Shown: positions 1 to 33,631 of the stretch, one piece after another
Position numbering within the stretch: position 1 is the stretch's first letter
Layout of the letters: each line of letters starts with the position of its first letter
Assembly (NCBI GenBank): GCA_021784875.1
Contig: JAJYHF010000019.1
Location: 1-39,257 of the forward strand
Source: a bacterium
Lineage (GTDB): Bacteria > Patescibacteriota > Minisyncoccia > Phycocordibacterales > Phycocordibacteraceae
Direction of reading: 5' to 3'
DNA: 39,257 nt
Notes under the pieces: generated by a model
Told to the model about the DNA's origin: nothing
What the model saw: only the letters and a program-made list of their open reading frames with translations
Databases searched by the model: none
Position numbers and translations under genes: made by a program

Positions 1-8
1 CGAAATAT

Positions 9-17
9 TGCTAGAGT
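9..17 (+). promoter_or_regulatory. extended -10 box TGcTAGAGT, 8 nt upstream of the rnr ATG (leaderless-type promoter)
   Basis: TG at 9-10, TAGAGT at 12-17, ATG at 26. No usable SD spacing. The same architecture recurs across the window. The -35 region falls off the window edge. Confidence 0.4.
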
Positions 18-1990: not shown

Positions 1991-3154
<1,164 letters not shown>

Positions 3155-6645: not shown

Positions 6646-7335
6646 TTACCAACCCATCTTGTCTAATGCTGCCTGGGCGGCTGATTGTTCGGCTTCTTGT
6701 TTTGACTTGCCCTCGCCGCGGGCGACTTCGTCGCCATTGAGGAAGACGCCGACGGTGAAGCGCTTGTCGTGGTCGGGGCCGACTTCCTCGAGCGTCTCGT
6801 AGCGCGGCGTGATGCCCCGCTTCTCCTGCGCGGCCTCTTGGAAGCGGCTCTTGGGGTCGCGGTAGGACTGCTTCTCGATGACCTCGTCGATCTTACGGTA
6901 GAGCTGCCCGGCGATGAAGGCCTCGGCGGCCGCGTAGCCCTGGTCGAGATAGATCGCGCCGATGACCGCCTCGAACGCGTCCGCGAGAATCACATCGCGC
7001 GCGCGGCCGGTGTCGCGCGCCTCGCCCTTCGAGAGGAGGAGATAATCGCTCGTGCCGAGCGCGGCGGCGCTCTCGGCGAGCGAGACGGTGTTGACGAGTG
7101 CAGCGCGATAGGCGGTAAGCTCGCCTTCAGGCTTTGCTGGGAATTTCTTGAAGAGGAAGTCGGTCGCGGCGAGCTCGAGCACCGCGTCGCCGAGGAACTC
7201 GAGCCGCTCGTTGTGCGCGCCCGCGTACTCGCGATGCTCGTTCAGATAGGAACGGTGCGTCAACGCCTCGACGAGGAGGTCGGGATTATGAAAGACGATG
7301 CCGAGCTCCGCGGCGAACGCAGCAAAATCAGGCAT
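6646..7335 (-). CDS. rnc: ribonuclease III
   Basis: HRSYLNE...NERLEFLGDAVLE signature plus a C-terminal dsRBD (DPKSRFQE...GEGKSKQEAEQSAAQAAL). Start chosen at MPDFAAF (cat at 7333-7335). Overlaps the nusB-nudix stop by 8 nt. Confidence 0.9.
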   Translation of the reverse strand: MPDFAAFAAELGIVFHNPDLLVEALTHRSYLNEHREYAGAHNERLEFLGDAVLELAATDFLFKKFPAKPEGELTAYRAALVNTVSLAESAAALGTSDYLLLSKGEARDTGRARDVILADAFEAVIGAIYLDQGYAAAEAFIAGQLYRKIDEVIEKQSYRDPKSRFQEAAQEKRGITPRYETLEEVGPDHDKRFTVGVFLNGDEVARGEGKSKQEAEQSAAQAALDKMGW

Positions 7336-8272
7336 GGACTGCAGCACGGGCGCGCTCACCGCTCGCGCGATCGAGGAGCTTCTGGACGGCCGCCGTGACG
7401 ATGGGGAGCATGTCGTCATAGAAGTTAAGGTCGATGATGTCCTGGAGGCGGAACCACTTCGCATCATCGAGGCCGCCCTTCCCTTTCTGCAGCTCGAGCG
7501 GCTCGAACGCGGAACGGGCGAGGAAGTAGGTCACGCGCTTGCGGTACTTACCCTTCTCCGGGTGGGAAGCGACGTACTCGTTCTCGCCGATCTTCTCCTC
7601 GACCGTAATGTCGAGGCCGATCTCTTCCTTGATCTCGCGCGCAGTCCCCTCCTCGGCCGTCTCGTCCTTGATGCTCGGGTCATCGCCGATCTTCCCCTTC
7701 GAGAGAGTCCAATGGCCGAAGACATCATGCACGAGCGCGAGGTAATACTGGCCGTCGTGCTTGGCATAGACGACCGCGCCACCGAGCTGCTGGAGCGGGA
7801 TATCCTCGTAACGGTGCTTCGCTTTCTTCCCGCCGTGCTCGTCCTTACCCGGTTCGCCGAGCTCCTTATAGACGGCACCGAGCACGCCGTTGACGAAGCG
7901 ACCGGACGACTCGCCACTGAAGGTCTTGGCAAGCTCGATGGCCTCATTGATAGCGACTTTGGCAGGCACCTGCGTACGGTCGGCGAAGAGGAGCTCGTAA
8001 AGCCCCATACGAAGGATGTTGCGATCGACCGGCGCGATGCGCTCGAGCGACCAGTCGGGAGCCGCCTTCTCGATGATGCGGTCGATATCGGGACGCTTCG
8101 CGAGCACGCCCGCGAGGAGGTTCTCCATGAACGGGCGGTCGACATCGTCGCCGCCGAACTCAGCCATGTTGCGCGCAAGAATGGCGGAGGCCTCGGACTC
8201 CGCCGCGTGGGAAGAATCCCACTCGAAGAGCGTCTGGAGGACGACGGAACGTGCGAGATGTCGGTTCGCCAT
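7328..8272 (-). CDS. nusB: NusB antitermination factor fused to a C-terminal Nudix hydrolase domain
   Basis: The N-terminal ~145 aa are NusB-like (RSVVLQTLFEWD...RIAPVDRNILRMGLYELLF...VAINEAIELAK...FVNGVLG). The C-terminal half carries the Nudix box E-x7-REIKEEIGL. Confidence 0.75.
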   Translation of the reverse strand: MANRHLARSVVLQTLFEWDSSHAAESEASAILARNMAEFGGDDVDRPFMENLLAGVLAKRPDIDRIIEKAAPDWSLERIAPVDRNILRMGLYELLFADRTQVPAKVAINEAIELAKTFSGESSGRFVNGVLGAVYKELGEPGKDEHGGKKAKHRYEDIPLQQLGGAVVYAKHDGQYYLALVHDVFGHWTLSKGKIGDDPSIKDETAEEGTAREIKEEIGLDITVEEKIGENEYVASHPEKGKYRKRVTYFLARSAFEPLELQKGKGGLDDAKWFRLQDIIDLNFYDDMLPIVTAAVQKLLDRASGERARAAVHA

Positions 8273-10079: not shown

Positions 10080-10865
10080 ATGAAAACGAAACGACGCGCC
10101 GGCGTGAACCCTAGGCGCCAACAAAAGGAAAAAATCTATGTCTACGGCCGGCACGCGCTCGCCGAGGCGCTCGAGAACATGCCGCAAGCGGTGCGGAAGG
10201 CTTTCATCGCGCCCGACCTGAAGGACGCCCGGCTGCGTGCCCTCCTTAAGAAGCACGGCATCCCGACCGCCGACCTCGCGCCCGGCAAGGGCAAGGAGCT
10301 CGCGGGCCGCGACGCGGTGCACCAAGGCGTCATCGCCCTCATCGATCCGGCGGCCGTCCTCACCCCGCTCGACCGCTTTCTCGAGACGCTCGACCTCGCC
10401 CGGAATCCGGCGGTCGCGGTCCTCGGCGAACTACAGGACCCGCATAACGTCGGCGCCGTCATCCGCTCGGCGGCCGCCTTCGGCCTCTCGGGCATCCTTA
10501 TCCCCGAACATAACCAAGCCGGTATAACCGGCACGGTCGTGAAGGCCTCGGCCGGCATGGCCTTCCGCATCCCGCTCGTTTCGATCGGGAACGTGAACCA
10601 CACGCTCGAAGTACTCAAGAAGCACGGCTTCTGGACCTACGGTCTCGCGATGAAGGGGACGGCGACCCCTGGCTCCGACGCCTTCGACGCGCCGGCCGCC
10701 TTCGTCATCGGGAACGAAGGCGCGGGCGTGCGCGAGAAGACGCTCGCCGCCTGCGATGTCACGCTCGCAATCCCGATGCATCCGCGCACCGAGTCCTTGA
10801 ACGCCGCCGTCTCAGCCGCCATCATCTTCTACGAGTGGAGCCGCAAGCACCCGGAAGCACTATGA
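10080..10865 (+). CDS. rlmB: TrmH/SpoU-family RNA 2'-O-methyltransferase (RlmB-like)
   Basis: Motifs LGELQDPHNVGAVIRSAAAFG, VIGNEGAGV and IPMHPRTESLNAAVSAAIIFYE. Confidence 0.8.
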   Translation: MKTKRRAGVNPRRQQKEKIYVYGRHALAEALENMPQAVRKAFIAPDLKDARLRALLKKHGIPTADLAPGKGKELAGRDAVHQGVIALIDPAAVLTPLDRFLETLDLARNPAVAVLGELQDPHNVGAVIRSAAAFGLSGILIPEHNQAGITGTVVKASAGMAFRIPLVSIGNVNHTLEVLKKHGFWTYGLAMKGTATPGSDAFDAPAAFVIGNEGAGVREKTLAACDVTLAIPMHPRTESLNAAVSAAIIFYEWSRKHPEAL

Positions 10866-23156: not shown

Positions 23157-23437
23157 GGACTGGGCTAGGCGATCGCTCTGCTAAACATTGCGGAGAGGAA
23201 AGTCCGGACACGGGCTCCGAAAGGAGCAGCAAGGTAGCGGGTAACGCCCGCACGCCGTGAGGCGCGAGGTGCGAACAGAAACGACCCGGTTAAGTCCGGC
23301 TGAAACGGCTAAATCCTTACCCCCGTGCAAGGCCGTGCCCCGAGAGCAATCGAGGGGAGAGCTGCTTGAGGCGCCGAGTGATCGTCGCCCTAGATACATG
23401 GTCGTCCACGACAGAATCCGGCTTATCGGCCCGGTCC
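23157..23437 (+). ncRNA. rnpB: RNase P RNA (bacterial type), compact ~281 nt
   Basis: GAGGAAAGTCCGGAC (P4 5' strand) and ACAGAATCCGGCTTA (P4 3' strand). The ends pair as GGACTGGGC / GCCCGGTCC (P1). End coordinates are approximate. Confidence 0.85.
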
Positions 23438-23450
23438 AAACAGCATGCAT

Positions 23451-26694: not shown

Positions 26695-28635
<1,941 letters not shown>

Positions 28636-28642
28636 GTTGCGC

Positions 28643-28650
28643 AGTATACT
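28643..28650. promoter_or_regulatory. palindromic AGTATACT: shared, overlapping -10 boxes for divergent ftsH and smpB
   Basis: The 22-nt intergenic region is 7 nt + AGTATACT + 7 nt. TATACT reads on both strands, each 7 nt from an ATG (28635 minus, 28658 plus). Confidence 0.5.
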
Positions 28651-28657
28651 CTTTGGT

Positions 28658-29098
28658 ATGATTCTCGTCGAATACAAGAAAGCTTCCATTAAGTTCGCTC
28701 CGGTCGAGACCTTCTCGGCCGGGCTCGAGCTCACGGGCGGCGAGGTCAAGACGCTCCGCAGCAAGCGGGGATCCCTCGACGGCTCACGCGTACTAATACG
28801 CGGGGGCGAGGCATATCTGGTCGGCATGACTATCCCGCCTTACCAAGCCGCAAACAGCCCAGAGAGCTACGACCCCGAGCGCCCGCGCCGCCTCCTTCTT
28901 ACGAGAGAAGAGATCGCGCACCTCGCCGCCGAAGAAGCGAAGAAGGGATTGACAATCGTCCCGCTCGAGGTATATACTGCCGGCAGGTTCCTGAAGGTGA
29001 AGATCGCGATCGTCCGCGGCAAGGGCAAGGCCGACCGCCGCGAGGACATCAAGAAACGCGATGCGCTGCGCGAAGCCGCACGCGACCTTAAGCGATAA
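28658..29098 (+). CDS. smpB: SsrA-binding protein SmpB
   Basis: FSAGLELTGGEVKTLR...GEAYLVGMTIPPY...RPRRLLLTREEI...GLTIVPLEVY...KVKIAIVRGKG. Located directly upstream of the tmRNA. Confidence 0.9.
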   Translation: MILVEYKKASIKFAPVETFSAGLELTGGEVKTLRSKRGSLDGSRVLIRGGEAYLVGMTIPPYQAANSPESYDPERPRRLLLTREEIAHLAAEEAKKGLTIVPLEVYTAGRFLKVKIAIVRGKGKADRREDIKKRDALREAARDLKR

Positions 29099-29147: not shown

Positions 29148-29567
29148 GGGGGTGACCGGCTTTGACGGTCTGCTCTTTGAAAGACGTGCGACGCAGTGCA
29201 CGCCCGCTCACCACTACAAACTGGCGGGTACCAAACGTGCCAAGGACACCTTTGCACGCGCGACGAAGTCCCCTTACTTCGGTAAGGTCGGCGACCTCGC
29301 GTTCGCCTACGCGACGGCTCGAGCGTAATGCTCGCCTCCGCCTAGCGCGACGTCTGCTCTCGACCGGCGCTCACAGCGTCGAGAGCGGGCGGAATCTCCT
29401 GTGAGCTAGAGCAGCGGCCGTCCGCCCGCTTCTCGAAACTTCGGACTCGTCGCGGAGCGGTTTCGTCCCGATTTTCACGCCCGCGATCAGACTTCAATCA
29501 GGACTATGCGTCGTAGAAGCGCTTTCAAAGCCAGATTCGGACTCGGGTTCGATTCCCGACATCTCCA
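29148..29567 (+). ncRNA. ssrA: tmRNA (SsrA)
   Basis: 5' GGGGGTGACCGGCTTTGACGG. 3' GGACTCGGGTTCGATTCCCGACATCTCCA. The acceptor GGGGGUG/CAUCUCC includes the G3-U70 pair. Internal tag frame ends at TAA 29326-29328. Confidence 0.9.
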
Positions 29568-29577
29568 CAGCAATAAA

Positions 29578-29616
29578 CACGAAGGTCTGCATGAGCGGGC
29601 CTTCGTGCGTTTTTGT
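29578..29616 (+). terminator. intrinsic terminator after ssrA
   Basis: CACGAAGG...CCTTCGTG stem (29578-29585 / 29600-29607) followed by CGTTTTTGT. Confidence 0.7.
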
Positions 29617-29627
29617 ATACTTCCCGC

Positions 29628-30176
29628 ATGAAGCCCTTACTCCGATCCTGGTTCGCCGGTGATGCGGTCGCGCTGGCGCCGAAGCTCTTGGGAAAGATCG
29701 TGAAGAAAGGCTCCTGCACGGGCATCATCGTCGAGACGGAAGCATACACGACCGATCCCGCGTCTCACGCCCATAGCGTGACGACTCGCTCCCGCATCAT
29801 GCGCGACACCTACGGCCACTGGTACGTCTATTTCACCTACGGCATGCACTGGTGTGTGAACGTGACGACGAATAAGGGCGGCACCGGCGCCGTCCTCATC
29901 CGCGCGGTCGAACCGATCGATGGTATCACCGCCATGAAGCGACGAAGGAAAACTGAGGCGCTCCGCAACCTCTGCAGCGGCCCGGCCAAGTTCTGCCAAG
30001 CTTTCGGCGTCACGGGCAAAGAGAACCAGACATTGGTTGGAGGCGACTTCGCGATCTTCGACGCGCCAGAGATACCGATGAACCAGGTTGCCACGTCAGT
30101 CCGGGTCGGCATCAACGGCAGGTCCGATCTCCCTTGGCGCTTCTTCATCAAGGACAATCCGTTCGTGAGCCGCTAG
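29628..30176 (+). CDS. mpg: DNA-3-methyladenine glycosylase (Mpg/AAG family)
   Basis: APKLLGKIV...GIIVETEAYTTDPASHAH...GHWYVYFTYGMHWCVNV. TATACT (29616-29621) lies 6 nt upstream of the ATG. Confidence 0.85.
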   Translation: MKPLLRSWFAGDAVALAPKLLGKIVKKGSCTGIIVETEAYTTDPASHAHSVTTRSRIMRDTYGHWYVYFTYGMHWCVNVTTNKGGTGAVLIRAVEPIDGITAMKRRRKTEALRNLCSGPAKFCQAFGVTGKENQTLVGGDFAIFDAPEIPMNQVATSVRVGINGRSDLPWRFFIKDNPFVSR

Positions 30177-30186
30177 CGCATCCGGT

Positions 30187-30215
30187 TTGCCCGCCCTCCG
30201 ATTCCCTGCTATCGT
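30187..30215 (+). promoter_or_regulatory. sigma70-like promoter, leader copy A: -35 TTGCCC, 17 nt, extended -10 TGcTATCGT
   Basis: TTGCCC at 30187-30192, TGc at 30207-30209, TATCGT at 30210-30215. Copy B has the same layout and nearly the same sequence. Confidence 0.5.
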
Positions 30216-30222
30216 CCGCTTC

Positions 30223-30272
30223 GGGTAGGCCCGGTTTCTGGGTCTGAATGTTGTTTTACAGGGAGGTAGAGA
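30223..30272 (+). promoter_or_regulatory. conserved 5' leader copy A: hairpin (GTTTC loop) + AATGTTGTTTTACA + GGGAGG SD
   Basis: Stem AGGCCC/GGGTCT (30227-30232 / 30240-30245), loop GGTTTCT, 14-mer at 30247-30260, SD at 30261-30266, ATG at 30273. Confidence 0.6.
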
Positions 30273-31244
30273 ATGGAGACGTTTACCGACCGCCTTCAGA
30301 AGGCGATGCGGGTAAAGGAGAGTGTTTTGTGCGTCGGGTTTGATCCGCAGCTCAAGTTCATACCGCCGCACCTCATCAAGGAAGCGATAAAATTCAAAGG
30401 GAGAACGTGGGAGGCCTTGGAATACTGCTTCCTTAAGTTCAACCTTGGAATCATGGACGCGGTCGAGCCGTACGCGGCAGTGATCAAGCCGCAGGCTGCG
30501 TTCTACGAGGCGAGCTATCAGTTGTGGCACGCGCTCGAGCAGACTATAAACTGGGCTGAAAAGTGTGAGCTCCTCGTCATCAAAGACGCCAAACGTCTGG
30601 ACGGAGGCGATACAGCGGATGCATATGCCCAGACTCACATTGGCATGGTGCCCTTCTTCGACGGAAAGATGATCAAGTCCCCACTCCGTACGGATGCAGT
30701 GACTATCGGCGGATCAATCGGCGAAGATTGCATCTCCAGATTCGTAAAGGAGATGAAGGCGCACGGAACCGGCGGATTCGTGGTCGACAAGACATCGTTC
30801 AAGCCGAACTCCGTCATAGAGCAGCTCGTGACGGAAAATGGTCTCAGCGTCTGGGAAGAACTCGCCTATTACGTCTCCATGTGGGGTGAAGGGACTGAAG
30901 GCGAGAACGGCTACCGAAACCTTGGCGTCGTCATGGGAGCTACATATCCCGAAGACGCTCTTAGGATGCGGAAGATTCTGCCGAATGCTGTCATGCTTGT
31001 TCCTGGTTACAGCCTGCCGGACAGCATCGGTCAAGGCGGAACAGCAGACGAAGCAGTCGTTTCCTTCAACGACGACGGCTTCGGTGCAGTGGTCAACGCC
31101 TCGCGAGCGATTATTGCCGCGTGGCAGAAGGGACCTTTCGCATGCGATCCAAAGGATTTCGCCAAGGCAGCAGGACAAGCCGCAAAAGCCGCTCGCGACG
31201 ATCTGAACGAGGCACTCAAGCGCGCGGGCAAGTATCCCTTCTAA
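30273..31244 (+). CDS. pyrF: orotidine-5'-phosphate decarboxylase-like protein (type 2 PyrF family)
   Basis: LCVGFDP, IKPQAAFYE, DAKRLD (DxKxxD), DAVTIGG, VVMGAT, and PG...GQGG with an insert. Lower G+C than the flanks. Confidence 0.6.
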   Translation: METFTDRLQKAMRVKESVLCVGFDPQLKFIPPHLIKEAIKFKGRTWEALEYCFLKFNLGIMDAVEPYAAVIKPQAAFYEASYQLWHALEQTINWAEKCELLVIKDAKRLDGGDTADAYAQTHIGMVPFFDGKMIKSPLRTDAVTIGGSIGEDCISRFVKEMKAHGTGGFVVDKTSFKPNSVIEQLVTENGLSVWEELAYYVSMWGEGTEGENGYRNLGVVMGATYPEDALRMRKILPNAVMLVPGYSLPDSIGQGGTADEAVVSFNDDGFGAVVNASRAIIAAWQKGPFACDPKDFAKAAGQAAKAARDDLNEALKRAGKYPF

Positions 31245-31265
31245 ATATCGATCATTCGGTTCGAA

Positions 31266-31299
31266 AAGGCCACGACCTGTGTCGCGGCCTTTGCCTTTT
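31266..31299 (+). terminator. hairpin terminator after the pyrF-like gene
   Basis: AAGGCCACGAC-ctgt-GTCGCGGCCTT (10 of 11 bp) followed by TGCCTTTT. Confidence 0.5.
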
Positions 31300-31306
31300 C
31301 TGTCGC

Positions 31307-31335
31307 TTGCTCGCTACCCTCTTCCTTGCTATCGT
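31307..31335 (+). promoter_or_regulatory. sigma70-like promoter, leader copy B: -35 TTGCTC, 17 nt, extended -10 TGcTATCGT
   Basis: TTGCTC at 31307-31312, TGc at 31327-31329, TATCGT at 31330-31335. Confidence 0.5.
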
Positions 31336-31341
31336 CCGTGC

Positions 31342-31393
31342 GGAGCCCTGTTTCGGGGCTAAATGTTGTTTTACACGGGAGGAAAAGAAAAAG
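31342..31393 (+). promoter_or_regulatory. conserved 5' leader copy B: hairpin (GTTTC loop) + AATGTTGTTTTACA + GGGAGG SD
   Basis: Stem AGCCC/GGGCT (31344-31348 / 31356-31360), loop TGTTTCG, 14-mer at 31362-31375, SD at 31377-31382, ATG at 31394. Confidence 0.6.
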
Positions 31394-31795
31394 ATGAGTG
31401 GCGCGAAAAAAGTAGATGACTTCAACACAGGGAAAACTCTGAATGAGCTGGCGAGGACGTATGCACATGTTGTCCTGGAAAAGTTCACGAAGAGGGACAA
31501 ATTTCTTGGCTTCGAAAGCTTGTATGGTGAAGACATAATCGTAGGTCCCACCGCAATGGTTTTGGACTTGTTGTGCGGGAATGTAAACCCCCCGATTCAC
31601 TTTGGCTCAAAGATCGAGCCCGGCAACCGTGTCCTCATTATGAACGGCACGACTTCCGCCGAGCAGGCAGCAAGACTTGTCGAATATGTTACGAGATCAA
31701 ACGCTATCCCAGTCGGTCTCGTTTCTTTCCCTTTCTCTGGCGCTAAAGAATTCGAACAGAAGTATGAGGTGCCAGTACATATCGTTACTCTGTAG
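31394..31795 (+). CDS. small phosphoribosyltransferase-like protein with degenerate PRPP-binding loop
   Basis: 133 aa. RVLIMNGTTSAEQA aligns to the type I PRTase motif (hydrophobic x4, acidic x2, then TTG-type loop), but with NG in place of the acidic pair. The C-terminus GLVSF...EVPVHIVTL is PyrE-like. The call is from motif resemblance only. Confidence 0.4.
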   Translation: MSGAKKVDDFNTGKTLNELARTYAHVVLEKFTKRDKFLGFESLYGEDIIVGPTAMVLDLLCGNVNPPIHFGSKIEPGNRVLIMNGTTSAEQAARLVEYVTRSNAIPVGLVSFPFSGAKEFEQKYEVPVHIVTL

Positions 31796-31800
31796 AAAGA

Positions 31801-31845
31801 CCCGCGGTGCACTGTGTGCACCGCGGGATTCTCATTTTTATTTTC
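31801..31845. terminator. bidirectional terminator between the PRTase-like gene and typA
   Basis: CCCGCGGTGCAC-tgt-GTGCACCGCGGG, a perfect 12-bp stem at 31801-31827. It is flanked by AGAAAGA upstream and ATTCTCATTTTTATTTT downstream. Confidence 0.75.
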
Positions 31846-33631
31846 AGCCTCGACGTGCGCGGGCGCGGTCGGTCTCGGTGAGGTACTGCTTGCGCAGGCG
31901 CACGGACTTGGGCGTGATCTCGAGATACTCGTCGTCGGCCATCACCTCGAGGCCGCGTTCGATCGAGAGTTCGTAGGGCGGCACGAGGTCGATCGCCTCG
32001 TCGGTACCCGAGGCGCGGACGTTCGTGAGATTCTTGTTCTTCGTCGGGTTCACCATCATCTCCTCGCCCTTGCTTGTGTTGCCAATCACCTGTCCCTCGT
32101 AGACTTCGGTCGCGGGCGTGATGTAGAGGACCCCACGTTCCTGGAGACCCCAGAGCGAATAGCCGAGCGCCTTCCCCGTCGCCATCGAGATCATCGAGCC
32201 GACCTGTCGCTTCTTTATCTCGCCTGCATAGGGCTTGAAGCCGACGAAGCGCGACGAGAGGATGCCCTCGCCTTTCGTGTCGATGATGAACTGGTTCTTG
32301 TAGCCGAGGAGGCCGCGCGTCGGGCCCTGGAGCGTGAGGCGCACGCCGCCGCCCTCGGGCCGGAGGTCCTGGAGAACGAAGGCGCGAAGCCCGAGCTTCT
32401 CGATGATCGCACCCTGAAACTCCGAAGGCGTATCGATGACGACCTCCTCGAAGGGCTCGAGCTTCTTCCCTTCTTCCTCGCGCGTGATGACCTGCGGCTG
32501 CGAGACCTGGAGCTCGTAACCCTCGCGACGCATATTCTCGAGCAGGATCGCGATGTGGAGCTCGCCGCGGCCGCTCACTTTGTACGCATCCGCGCTCGAG
32601 AATTCGACGCGCAGGCCGACGTTGACCTCGAGCTCCTTCTCGAGCCGGTCGCGGATCTGGCGCGAGGTCACGAACTTCCCTTCCCGCCCGGCGAAGGGCG
32701 AGTTGTTGACAAGGAAATCGAGCGTGATGGTCGGCTCGTCGACGGCAATCGCCGGCAAGGGCGCGGCCGCAGGGTCGGTCGTCACCGTCTCGCCGATGTA
32801 GATGTCGGGGAGGCCGGCGATAAGGACGATGTCGCCGGCCGACGCCTCCGCCGCCTCGACGCGATCGAGACCTTTGAAGGTGAAGAGCTTGGTCGTCCTC
32901 CCCGTCCGCGCCTCTCCGTCCGGCTTCTTGACGATGACATTCTGGTTCGGCTTCACGGTGCCTTGGTAGATGCGCCCGACCGCCATCCGACCGAGGAAGT
33001 TGTCATAAGCGAGATTGAAGGGCTGGAGCACGAGCGGCGCGCTCGCGTCCGTCCCGACGTTCGCCGCCGGGACCTTCTCAAGGATCGTATCGAGGAGCGG
33101 CGTGAGGTCCTTCCGTTCATCGTCAAGTTTCTTCATCGCGACGCCTTCGCGCCCGATCGCGTAAACCACCGGGAAATCGCTCTGTTCGTCGGAAGCGCCG
33201 AGCTCGAGGAAGAGCTCGAGGACCTGTTCCTCGCAGCGGCCTGGGTCGGCGGCCGGCTTGTCGATCTTGTTCACGACGACGATGGGCTTCAACCCGAGTT
33301 CGAGCGACTTCTTCAGCACGAAGCGCGTCTGCGGCATCGGCCCCTCAGCCGCGTCGACGACGAGCAGCACCGAGTCGATCGAGCGCAACACGCGCTCGAC
33401 CTCGCTTCCGAAATCGGCGTGCCCCGGCGTGTCAACGATATTGATCTTCGTGCCCTTATACTCGACTGCCGTATTCTTGGAGTAGATGGTGATGCCGCGC
33501 TCGCGCTCGAGCGTGTTGCTGTCCATCGAGACGCCCTCGGCGACGGCGCCCGTCTGGCGCATGATGGCGTCGGTCAAGGTCGTCTTCCCGTGGTCGACGT
33601 GCGCGATGATAGCGATATTCCGGATTTCCAT
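31844..33631 (-). CDS. typA: translational GTPase TypA/BipA
   Basis: [38 protein letters not shown]. Start chosen at MEIRN (cat at 33629-33631). Confidence 0.95.

Follow-up and report, generated by a model that had tools for sequence, protein, structure and literature searches.

A Duplicated Promoter and Hairpin-Containing Leader Upstream of pyrF and a PyrE-Like Gene on a Putative Parcubacterial Contig

Gene regulation and messenger RNA (mRNA) biology in the candidate phyla radiation (CPR)/Patescibacteria are almost unexplored, because the organisms are uncultured. This report concerns contig JAJYHF010000019.1 (GenBank assembly GCA_021784875.1; positions 1 to 39,257, the whole stretch of DNA analyzed and hereafter called the window; GC content, 62%), on which two adjacent genes, pyrF and a short open reading frame (ORF2), each follow one copy of a shared promoter and structured leader. 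The same contig is also found in NCBI assembly GCA_027342425.1 and in ENA and Logan assemblies. Judged by its sequence, the host is an uncultured, ultra-small, Kaiserbacteria/Paceibacterota-like member of the Parcubacteria; the nearest named pyrF homologues belong to Candidatus Kaiserbacteria, Moranbacteria, and Paceibacterota.

Genes at the locus

Genes are arranged in the order ftsH (− strand), smpB, transfer-messenger RNA (tmRNA), a methylpurine glycosylase gene (MPG), pyrF, ORF2, typA (− strand), and an Nramp gene (− strand). The first gene with a leader copy (30273 to 31244, + strand; 323 amino acids [aa]; GC, 0.55; GC at third codon positions [GC3], 0.67) encodes orotidine-5'-phosphate decarboxylase subfamily 2 (TIGR02127 at 180.6 bits against a cutoff of 110.6; PF00215 at 9.7e-17), as its earlier pyrF-like label had implied, and homologues are widespread in Parcubacteria.

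ORF2 (31394 to 31795, + strand; 133 aa; GC, 0.48; GC3, 0.55) is a truncated, divergent gene resembling that for orotate phosphoribosyltransferase (OPRTase; PyrE). Its product matched no Pfam or NCBIfam family, a test against PF00156 included, and an exhaustive HMMER search of 1.84 billion representative proteins returned only three relatives, namely, P0122 (147 aa, 56% identity), P0124 (214 aa, 33% identity, pairwise E value of 3e-15), and a repeat protein whose match is probably spurious. P0124 in turn matched solved enterobacterial and yeast OPRTases at 3e-19, and ORF2 is therefore OPRTase derived by transitive homology; the phosphoribosyltransferase (PRTase)-like label of the original prediction stands through this link and finds no direct family match. 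The product is short of about 48 residues at the N terminus and about 33 at the C terminus, its phosphoribosyl pyrophosphate (PRPP) motif is VLIMNGTTSAEQ, where N-G stands instead of the acidic pair, and ORF2 does not have the combination of two acidic residues and an (S/T)-G-x-T-type loop that defines type I PRTases. Direct comparison with the conventional PyrE encoded downstream of pyrF in a 70% relative (L114) gave no similarity, so ORF2 is not simply the decayed orthologue of that gene. Among comparable genomes, the nonsynonymous rate (dN) was 0.35 for ORF2 (against its homologue in L112, described below), 0.12 for pyrF, and 0.07 for TypA, a 3 to 5 times faster evolution of ORF2 than of its neighbors; its synonymous rate (dS) is saturated, and some purifying selection therefore probably remains. 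An AlphaFold model of ORF2, built on a three-sequence alignment, was too poor to use (pLDDT, 45.7).

The interval from 30187 to 31843 forms a low-GC island (pyrF, 0.55, and ORF2, 0.48, against 0.62 for the window). GC3 is 0.76 to 0.88 in nearly all other genes and about 0.8 to 0.87 in the neighboring ones, above that of either pyrF or ORF2, and the low GC and GC3 of the pair suggest lateral gain from a lower-GC relative that initiates at Shine-Dalgarno (SD) sequences; both genes are probably of foreign origin. Each is followed by a terminator of its own. The intrinsic terminator after pyrF (31265 to 31299, + strand; stem GGCCACGAC/GUCGCGGCC, tail UUUGCCUUUU) has a hairpin of −12.6 to −16.0 kcal/mol and a tail score of −3.98, and the bidirectional terminator after ORF2 (31801 to 31843, + strand), which also closes the convergent typA, has a 12-bp stem of −24.7 kcal/mol and a tail score of −2.87. 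With a strong terminator each, pyrF and ORF2 therefore constitute two monocistronic cassettes.

Anatomy of the two leader copies

The shared module consists of a promoter and a leader of ~50 nucleotides (nt), with copy A (30187 to 30272) upstream of pyrF and copy B (31307 to 31393) upstream of ORF2. Promoter A (30187 to 30215, + strand) has a −35 element TTGCCC (30187 to 30192), a 17-nt pyrimidine-rich spacer, and an extended −10 element TGcTATCGT (30207 to 30215), and promoter B (31307 to 31335, + strand) has TTGCTC (31307 to 31312), a 17-nt spacer, and TGcTATCGT (TATCGT at 31330 to 31335). The 17-mer around the −10 box, TTCCYTGCTATCGTCCG, has exact matches in the window at the two copies only. 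A generic TTGACA/TATAAT promoter scan listed neither site, since TATCGT is a poor match to TATAAT. The −35 element of copy B lies 7 nt past the end of the pyrF terminator tail, which leaves no space for a further promoter upstream.

Leader hairpin A (30226 to 30246, core 30227 to 30245, AGGCCCGGTTTCTGGGTCT; + strand) pairs AGGCCCG with UGGGUCU around a GUUUC loop, has a predicted energy of −10.3 to −11.3 kcal/mol, and occurs in both the minimum free energy (MFE) and the centroid folds; hairpin B (31344 to 31360, + strand; AGCCCU-GUUUC-GGGGCU) reaches −9.7 kcal/mol. A U-rich 14-mer follows (AAUGUUGUUUUACA as RNA, AATGTTGTTTTACA as DNA; 30247 to 30260, + strand), unpaired in predicted folds and repeated exactly in copy B (31362 to 31375, + strand); the window holds these two sites only, even at 2 mismatches, where shuffles lead one to expect 0. 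The SD sequence is GGGAGG in both copies, 6 nt upstream of the ATG at 30273 in copy A (30261 to 30266, + strand) and 11 nt upstream of the ATG at 31394 in copy B (31377 to 31382, + strand). Folds of the promoter-initiated leader leave the SD and the U tract unpaired, and the element lies at a constant distance of 15 to 17 nt from the downstream SD. The original prediction had described this shared module from the letters of the sequence, and its coordinates and its promoter and 14-mer identities were all reproduced. It had also placed a U-rich run 2 to 3 nt after the hairpin, which was not recovered, as the first U lies 3 to 4 nt and the UUUU run 8 to 9 nt past the stem.

Leaderless background and predicted transcription start

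The start regions of about 30 high-GC3 ORFs of the window were scanned, and at least 14 genes were leaderless, in that a TAnnnT box ends 6 to 9 nt before the start codon and no SD is present. These −10 boxes are usually preceded by TG or GG, giving (T/G)GnTAnnnT; examples are the starts at 3154, 6621, 8725, 18723, 19603, 23093, 34969, and 36836 (− strand) and at 10080, 13825, 16025, 23500, and 29628 (+ strand). The genome appears to be predominantly leaderless. The −10 boxes of pyrF and ORF2 have the same form but lie about 57 nt before the ATG, and a leader of ~50 nt with a well-placed SD occurs in the window at these two genes only, so that the arrangement is as exceptional as had been supposed.

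In leaderless genes, the start codon is the transcription start site, 7 to 9 nt after the last T of the −10 box. Since these genes fix both positions, the same rule was applied to the two copies, and transcription is predicted to start at 30222 to 30224 (+ strand) in copy A and at 31342 to 31344 in copy B. Hairpin A would begin 2 to 4 nt and hairpin B 0 to 2 nt from the predicted 5' end, and the range over all four copies of the leader (the two described next included) is 0 to 4 nt.

Relatives of the leader and its conservation

Two further copies were located via protein homologues, one upstream of pyrF (L081, GCA_021824665.1) and one upstream of an ORF2 homologue (L112, ENA ERZ27233565). The L081 locus carries smpB, MPG, a cyclopropane-fatty-acid-synthase (CMAS)-family methyltransferase gene (− strand), pyrF (80% identity), and typA (− strand), with ORF2 absent at the locus; its leader consists of TTGTAC, a 17-nt spacer, TGgTATCAT, CCGCUGCAGAUA, the hairpin GGCCCU-GUUUC-GGGGCU, GAAUGUUGUUUUACAGGAAUGAGGAGG, and ATG. 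In L112, the gene for P0122 lies directly downstream of MPG and pyrF is absent; the leader (L112:1270-1372) has a promoter identical to that of copy A, the hairpin AGCCCG-GUUUC-UGGGCU, and the tail AAAUGUUUUUUAUAUAGGGAAGGAAG. The 14-mer is identical in copies A and B and in L081, and the L112 version, AAUGUUUUUUAUAUA, is still A/U rich. All four copies have a sigma-70-type extended −10 promoter (TTGCCC, TTGCTC, or TTGTAC, a 17-nt spacer, and TG(c/g)TATC(G/A)T), and its geometry (TTG, 17 nt, TAnnnT) is kept in all four, although copy B and L081 differ from copy A at many spacer positions. The promoters of copy A and L112 are 100% identical over about 55 nt, against about 83% for adjacent coding DNA. 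The L112 leader is chimeric, with an A-type promoter and closing pair and B-type stem flanks, which matches the product expected from deletion of pyrF by recombination between A and B; L112 thus appears to have lost pyrF by recombination between leader copies. In more than one species, then, the leader goes with each of the two genes.

In the comparison of the window with L081, identity at fourfold-degenerate sites is 48% in pyrF (dS, 1.46) and 69% in typA, and the segment from the hairpin through the 14-mer is identical at 34 of 37 positions (P = 2e-8 to 9e-4). Copy B and L112 share 29 of 34 positions of the leader core, against 42% at ORF2 fourfold sites. In these copies, the promoter spacer and the segment from SD to ATG have diverged and the hairpin, loop, and 14-mer have not. 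By this measure, conservation of the leader core goes well past what neutral change would predict. Each of the six stem pairs is a standard one throughout the four copies. At the closing position, two copies have G·U and two have U·G; at the outer position, both A-U and G·U occur, and copy A holds one additional G·U pair. Because the G·U pairs and the swap from G·U to U·G keep an RNA helix and not a DNA palindrome, a hairpin at the RNA level is favored. In the true register, 98% of positions are paired, against 25 to 69% in slid registers, a contrast partly due to the way in which the structure was derived.

Wider searches returned no further members. Rfam gave no relevant match at the locus, either at the gathering threshold or permissively (E ≤ 10 on 29900 to 31900), and a covariance model of the four copies (R1), run over the window and 85 loci with pyrF or ORF2 homologues, found its four inputs only. 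A pattern scan of JGI metagenomes (GTTTCNGGGN{3,4}AATGTTGTTTT) gave 26 matches, all due to chance and none with a CCC arm or leader context, and a scan of viral contigs (GTTTCNGGGN{3,4}AATGTTNTTTT) gave 8, all at ≤17 bits by the model, against 59 to 75 bits for the true copies. A synteny walk through the closest TypA homologues added four loci (L115 to L118), none with the leader, and upstream of pyrF homologues at ≤73% identity the leader sequences are unrelated. The proposed covariance model and search of homologous loci added no copy to the two found via their proteins, in which pairing is kept, and covariation was not significant.

A strong, unrelated hairpin lies upstream in 7 of 14 more distant pyrF regions (3.5 expected), and 6 of the 7 stand within the leader, with an A/U-rich spacer and then an SD behind them; the remaining one (L016) resembles a terminator of the gene before. 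In L085, a 73% pyrF relative, the leader hairpin CAGCCGAAUGGUUCGGCUG (560 to 600) and the pyrF terminator UUGCAACCGAAUGGUUGCGA (1600 to 1630) have a common core, CCGAAUGGUU, which is another instance of a hairpin sequence repeated on both sides of pyrF.

Two features of the four copies may be recorded here. The promoter spacers are pyrimidine rich in all of them (a fraction of 0.74 to 0.83, against 0.22 to 0.61 in 13 other promoters, in the 23-nt stretch that runs from the −35 hexamer up to the −10 box) and contain a CCUCC-like anti-SD sequence (window, 30193 to 30209 and 31313 to 31329; L081:2918-2934); in read-through transcripts, this sequence could mask the SD, and it exceeded shuffled controls in the L081 copy only. 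An AUG lies within each 14-mer (30248 to 30250, 31363 to 31365, L081:2971-2973, and L112 at about 1339 to 1341), for copies A and B in a +1 frame that runs over the main start, as an in-frame 10-codon extension of pyrF in L081, and as a 4-codon ORF in L112. A leader peptide starting there is improbable and was rejected: all four copies keep the AUG, yet their reading frames do not agree.

Tests of regulatory mechanisms

Leader hairpins were compared with four real terminators (three in the window and one after pyrF in L081). Stem energies were −9.7 to −11.3 kcal/mol (6 to 9 pairs) in the leaders and −12.6 to −27.6 kcal/mol in the terminators, tail scores were −1.96 to −2.28 and −2.76 to −3.98, respectively, and the U tract of the leaders does not abut the stem. 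The tail cutoff of TransTermHP is about −2.5, a value of which the leader tails fall short. A lenient terminator consensus scan did list both hairpins of the window (7 to 9 pairs, 5 U in 8). No conserved antiterminator or alternative fold was present among the folds of the copies, and no leader ORF crosses the hairpin; the sole upstream AUG is 3' of it, and with the inconsistent frames this position excludes ribosome-coupled control of the pyrBI/pyrE type.

Several further devices were tried and set aside. Reiterative transcription or start-site switching of the pyrG, pyrC, or codBA type lacks a conserved G or U run at the predicted start. A novel riboswitch core is not supported by a single hairpin of 6 to 7 bp with no multihelix core, known from four copies in three genomes. 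A loop-to-tail pseudoknot would have ≤3 adjacent pairs, is sterically implausible, and is not conserved, and the GUUUC loop has no conserved downstream complement in the four copies. The model of the PyrR binding site (RF00515) gave no match at its gathering threshold or at E ≤ 10 on 29900 to 31900. An SD-occluding helix (TTCCYTG with CAGGGAG, extending to the CCUCC-like spacer sequence) can form in all four copies and requires that the promoter region be transcribed, i.e., entry from upstream; as a sequestering device it was rejected, since in A, B, and L112 the pairing is no better than that of spacers shuffled at the same pyrimidine-rich composition, and L081 alone stands out. The original prediction had proposed this fold, and it is upheld as a possible pairing and, outside L081, as nothing better than shuffled spacers would give. 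No candidate regulator gene is apparent in the window, and a literature search for leaderless translation or pyrimidine control in CPR found nothing specific.

Interpretation

We tentatively read the module, as the best of several possibilities and at somewhat less than even confidence, as a duplicated promoter-leader expression unit made up of a protective hairpin at the 5' terminus, a U-rich tract for ribosome loading, and an SD. Its appearance suggests a role in mRNA stability and translation, mainly at the RNA level, more than a new sensor of pyrimidines. An extended −10 promoter of host type would start the transcript about 7 to 9 nt past TATCGT; a GC-rich stem-loop would follow almost immediately, with 0 to 4 unpaired 5' nt, and would shield the mRNA against 5'-end-dependent decay; the unstructured U-rich tract of about 15 to 17 nt would serve as a landing, standby, or enhancer region for ribosomes; and the strong GGGAGG would steer canonical initiation. 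The module would thereby serve two low-GC, probably laterally acquired pyrimidine-salvage genes in a genome that is otherwise nearly all leaderless. We infer the stabilizing role of the hairpin, the enhancer role of the U tract, and sharing by duplication rather than by coregulation. In L112 the 14-mer has changed yet stays A/U rich, which fits a requirement for composition and absence of structure better than one for a fixed motif; together with the hairpins of distant pyrF leaders, this change favors a physical over a sequence-specific role.

Each part has familiar counterparts. Terminal stem-loops at the 5' end of E. coli ompA and of B. subtilis aprE and ermC block 5'-end-dependent decay. 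The present leader shares with them a hairpin a few nucleotides from the (predicted) 5' end, an accessible ribosome-binding region, and independence of any alternative structure; it differs in having no sequence relation to them, in the sequence conservation of its loop and downstream tract, and in its otherwise leaderless host. A/U-rich enhancers and ribosome standby sites upstream of an SD are binding sites of ribosomal protein S1. Like them, the leader has an unstructured U-rich tract of ~15 nt directly upstream of a strong SD, flanked by a stable hairpin; unlike them, it is more conserved in sequence than a purely compositional signal would require. RNase J, a 5'-to-3' exonuclease and endonuclease, is kept in CPR genomes (PMC12641178).

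Several observations weigh against this reading. None of the four copies departs from the GUUUC loop, and three of them, both paralogues included, have exactly the same 14-mer, an identity that a generic stabilizer or enhancer would not require and that is incompletely explained. The same leader on two genes of one pathway looks like a regulon, and such a hairpin is missing from half of the more distant pyrF leaders. The observed covariation score was reached by 86 of 500 shuffles, with one covarying pair among 13, and is not significant because there are only four copies from three close genomes. The transcription start of both copies, on which the terminal position of the hairpin depends, is itself a prediction from the leaderless genes.

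The closest competitor, which we consider unlikely, is an RNA operator, on which a trans-acting pyrimidine- or PRPP-responsive protein would bind the GUUUC hairpin and 14-mer and block the SD or alter decay; the regulator could be ORF2, as a noncatalytic PRTase-fold protein exerting PyrR-like control of its own mRNA. Such an operator would account for the invariant loop, for a 14-mer kept exact in paralogous and orthologous copies beyond neutral expectation, for the constant distance of 15 to 17 nt to the SD, and for the presence of the leader before ORF2 homologues in two species and pyrF in two species, and ORF2 is OPRTase derived, has lost the acidic pair of its PRPP motif, and shows some apparent purifying selection. 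The PyrR leaders of Bacillus and Mycobacterium (RF00515) likewise place a hairpin on pyrimidine genes, with a PRTase-fold protein in the locus and the element before more than one pyr cistron. They differ from the present case in the covariance match and the terminator/antiterminator pair that are absent here and in that ORF2 is not a PyrR or Upp homologue; the binding-loop motif of PyrR is also different from GUUUC. Besides the missing PyrR-site match, the rarity of ORF2 (three relatives in 1.84 billion proteins) and its 3- to 5-fold rate resemble decay and not an essential regulator, L081 has the pyrF leader and no ORF2 at the locus, the structure model is unusable at its pLDDT of 45.7, and the window encodes no candidate regulator. 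The stronger claim that the GUUUC hairpin and U-rich tail form a new lineage-restricted cis-regulatory RNA coordinating an orotate-salvage pair in Kaiserbacteria-like CPR bacteria, with a catalytically dead ORF2 as its RNA-binding metabolite sensor, is highly improbable; if true, the PyrR principle of a PRTase turned RNA-binding attenuator protein would have arisen independently a second time, with ORF2 regulating its own mRNA through its own leader copy. Binding at the DNA level is no more credible, with a repressor acting by roadblock or promoter occlusion at the imperfect palindrome AGCCC-N7-GGGCT, the TGT-N6-ACA in the 14-mer, and TTCCYTGCTATCGTCCG: conservation does reach into the promoter (17 identical bases between A and B; 100% over about 55 nt between A and L112), but the G·U pairs (two in copy A) break DNA symmetry yet keep RNA pairing, the G·U-to-U·G swap of the closing pair does not keep a DNA half-site, and no regulator gene lies nearby.

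UTP-sensitive attenuation, which the original prediction had put forward, is distinctly unlikely. The hairpin and the following (G/A)AAUGUUGUUUU would have to act as a weak intrinsic terminator that halts some of the transcripts ahead of the SD, with read-through set by UTP-dependent elongation; the lenient scan rates both hairpins as terminator-like, the tails of local terminators are imperfect too, the U run is longer in the L112 copy, and the genes belong to the pyrimidine pathway. In E. coli, the attenuators of pyrBI and pyrE also set a GC-rich hairpin and then U-rich RNA before a gene of pyrimidine biosynthesis; here, by comparison, no leader ORF crosses the hairpin, no U-rich pause region precedes it, and local terminators have stronger stems and U tracts. 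Stem energy and tail score both fall below those of all four real terminators, the U run begins only 8 to 9 nt past the stem, the conserved antiterminator is missing and the upstream AUG is 3' of the hairpin, no G/U run suited to reiterative transcription is conserved at the start, and the hairpins of distant pyrF leaders mostly have no U tract behind them. A leader with no function beyond promoter and SD, similar among copies through recent duplication, gene conversion, and short divergence times, is very unlikely: all four copies do come from three close genomes (typA at 86% nucleotide identity), the chimeric L112 copy shows recombination between copies, and covariation is not significant, but the leader core is 92% identical where pyrF synonymous sites are near saturation (dS, 1.46; fourfold identity, 48%), and the spacer and SD-to-ATG segments diverged freely when hairpin, loop, and 14-mer did not. 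A small riboswitch or SD-sequestering switch, also among the earlier proposals, has the least to commend it and is extremely unlikely. It would pair CCUCC/UUCCYUG with the SD region as P1, take the hairpin as P2, and bind a pyrimidine metabolite at junctions formed by the promoter and 14-mer sequences; P1 is possible in all four copies (96% of cells paired) and occurs in MFE folds of extended transcripts (L081 z-score, −2.5), and transcripts of MPG could read through into copy A and the L112 copy, where there is no terminator in between. Against this, real spacers in A, B, and L112 pair with the SD region no better than shuffled ones, copy B sits right behind a strong terminator with no space for an upstream promoter, the upstream gene in L081 is divergent and makes entry from upstream unlikely there, promoter geometry is conserved exactly, and a lone hairpin of 6 to 7 bp offers no conserved pseudoknot, no Rfam match, and no copies beyond the three close genomes.

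No described RNA family includes the leader; its architecture is nevertheless familiar, and none of the results calls for a new mechanism. On present evidence, it is a small, narrow leader family of ordinary-looking architecture that is genuine and selectively maintained. The suggestion of a new pyrimidine-linked cis-element holds for a conserved leader, absent from Rfam, on two pyrimidine-related genes, and the three regulatory mechanisms put forward with it are not specifically supported. The locus contrasts two modes of expression in one genome, nearly all genes being leaderless and two genes of foreign composition having a structured SD leader. As a cassette for stability and translation, the module would show how a leaderless host can accommodate acquired genes and how repeated leaders can promote cassette loss (compare the apparent pyrF deletion in L112); should it prove a regulated operator, no pyrimidine-linked RNA control element would have been described in CPR before it.

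Neighboring genes and other observations

MPG (29628 to 30176, + strand) has a leaderless promoter, upstream of which lies a strong terminator (29578 to 29607). The tmRNA (29148 to 29570; 76.9 bits) is immediately downstream of smpB (28499 to 29098). The contents of the interval between MPG and typA vary among the window, L081, L112, and L115 to L118 in five arrangements, namely, pyrF with ORF2, a CMAS-family methyltransferase gene with pyrF, ORF2 alone, a methyltransferase gene with unknown small ORFs, and nothing; by this comparison, the interval behaves as a hotspot of cassette gain and loss. In L112, the gene called before the ORF2 homologue (286 to 1269) encodes a 327-aa product with ABC_tran and Pur_DNA_glyco matches, either a fusion or a miscalled start.

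Elsewhere in the window, a bacterial class A RNase P RNA (23157 to 23441) is 285 nt long, yet matches the full 367-position model, and is therefore a reduced version. In one ORF (7328 to 8272, − strand), a NusB domain at the N terminus is joined to a NUDIX hydrolase domain at the C terminus.

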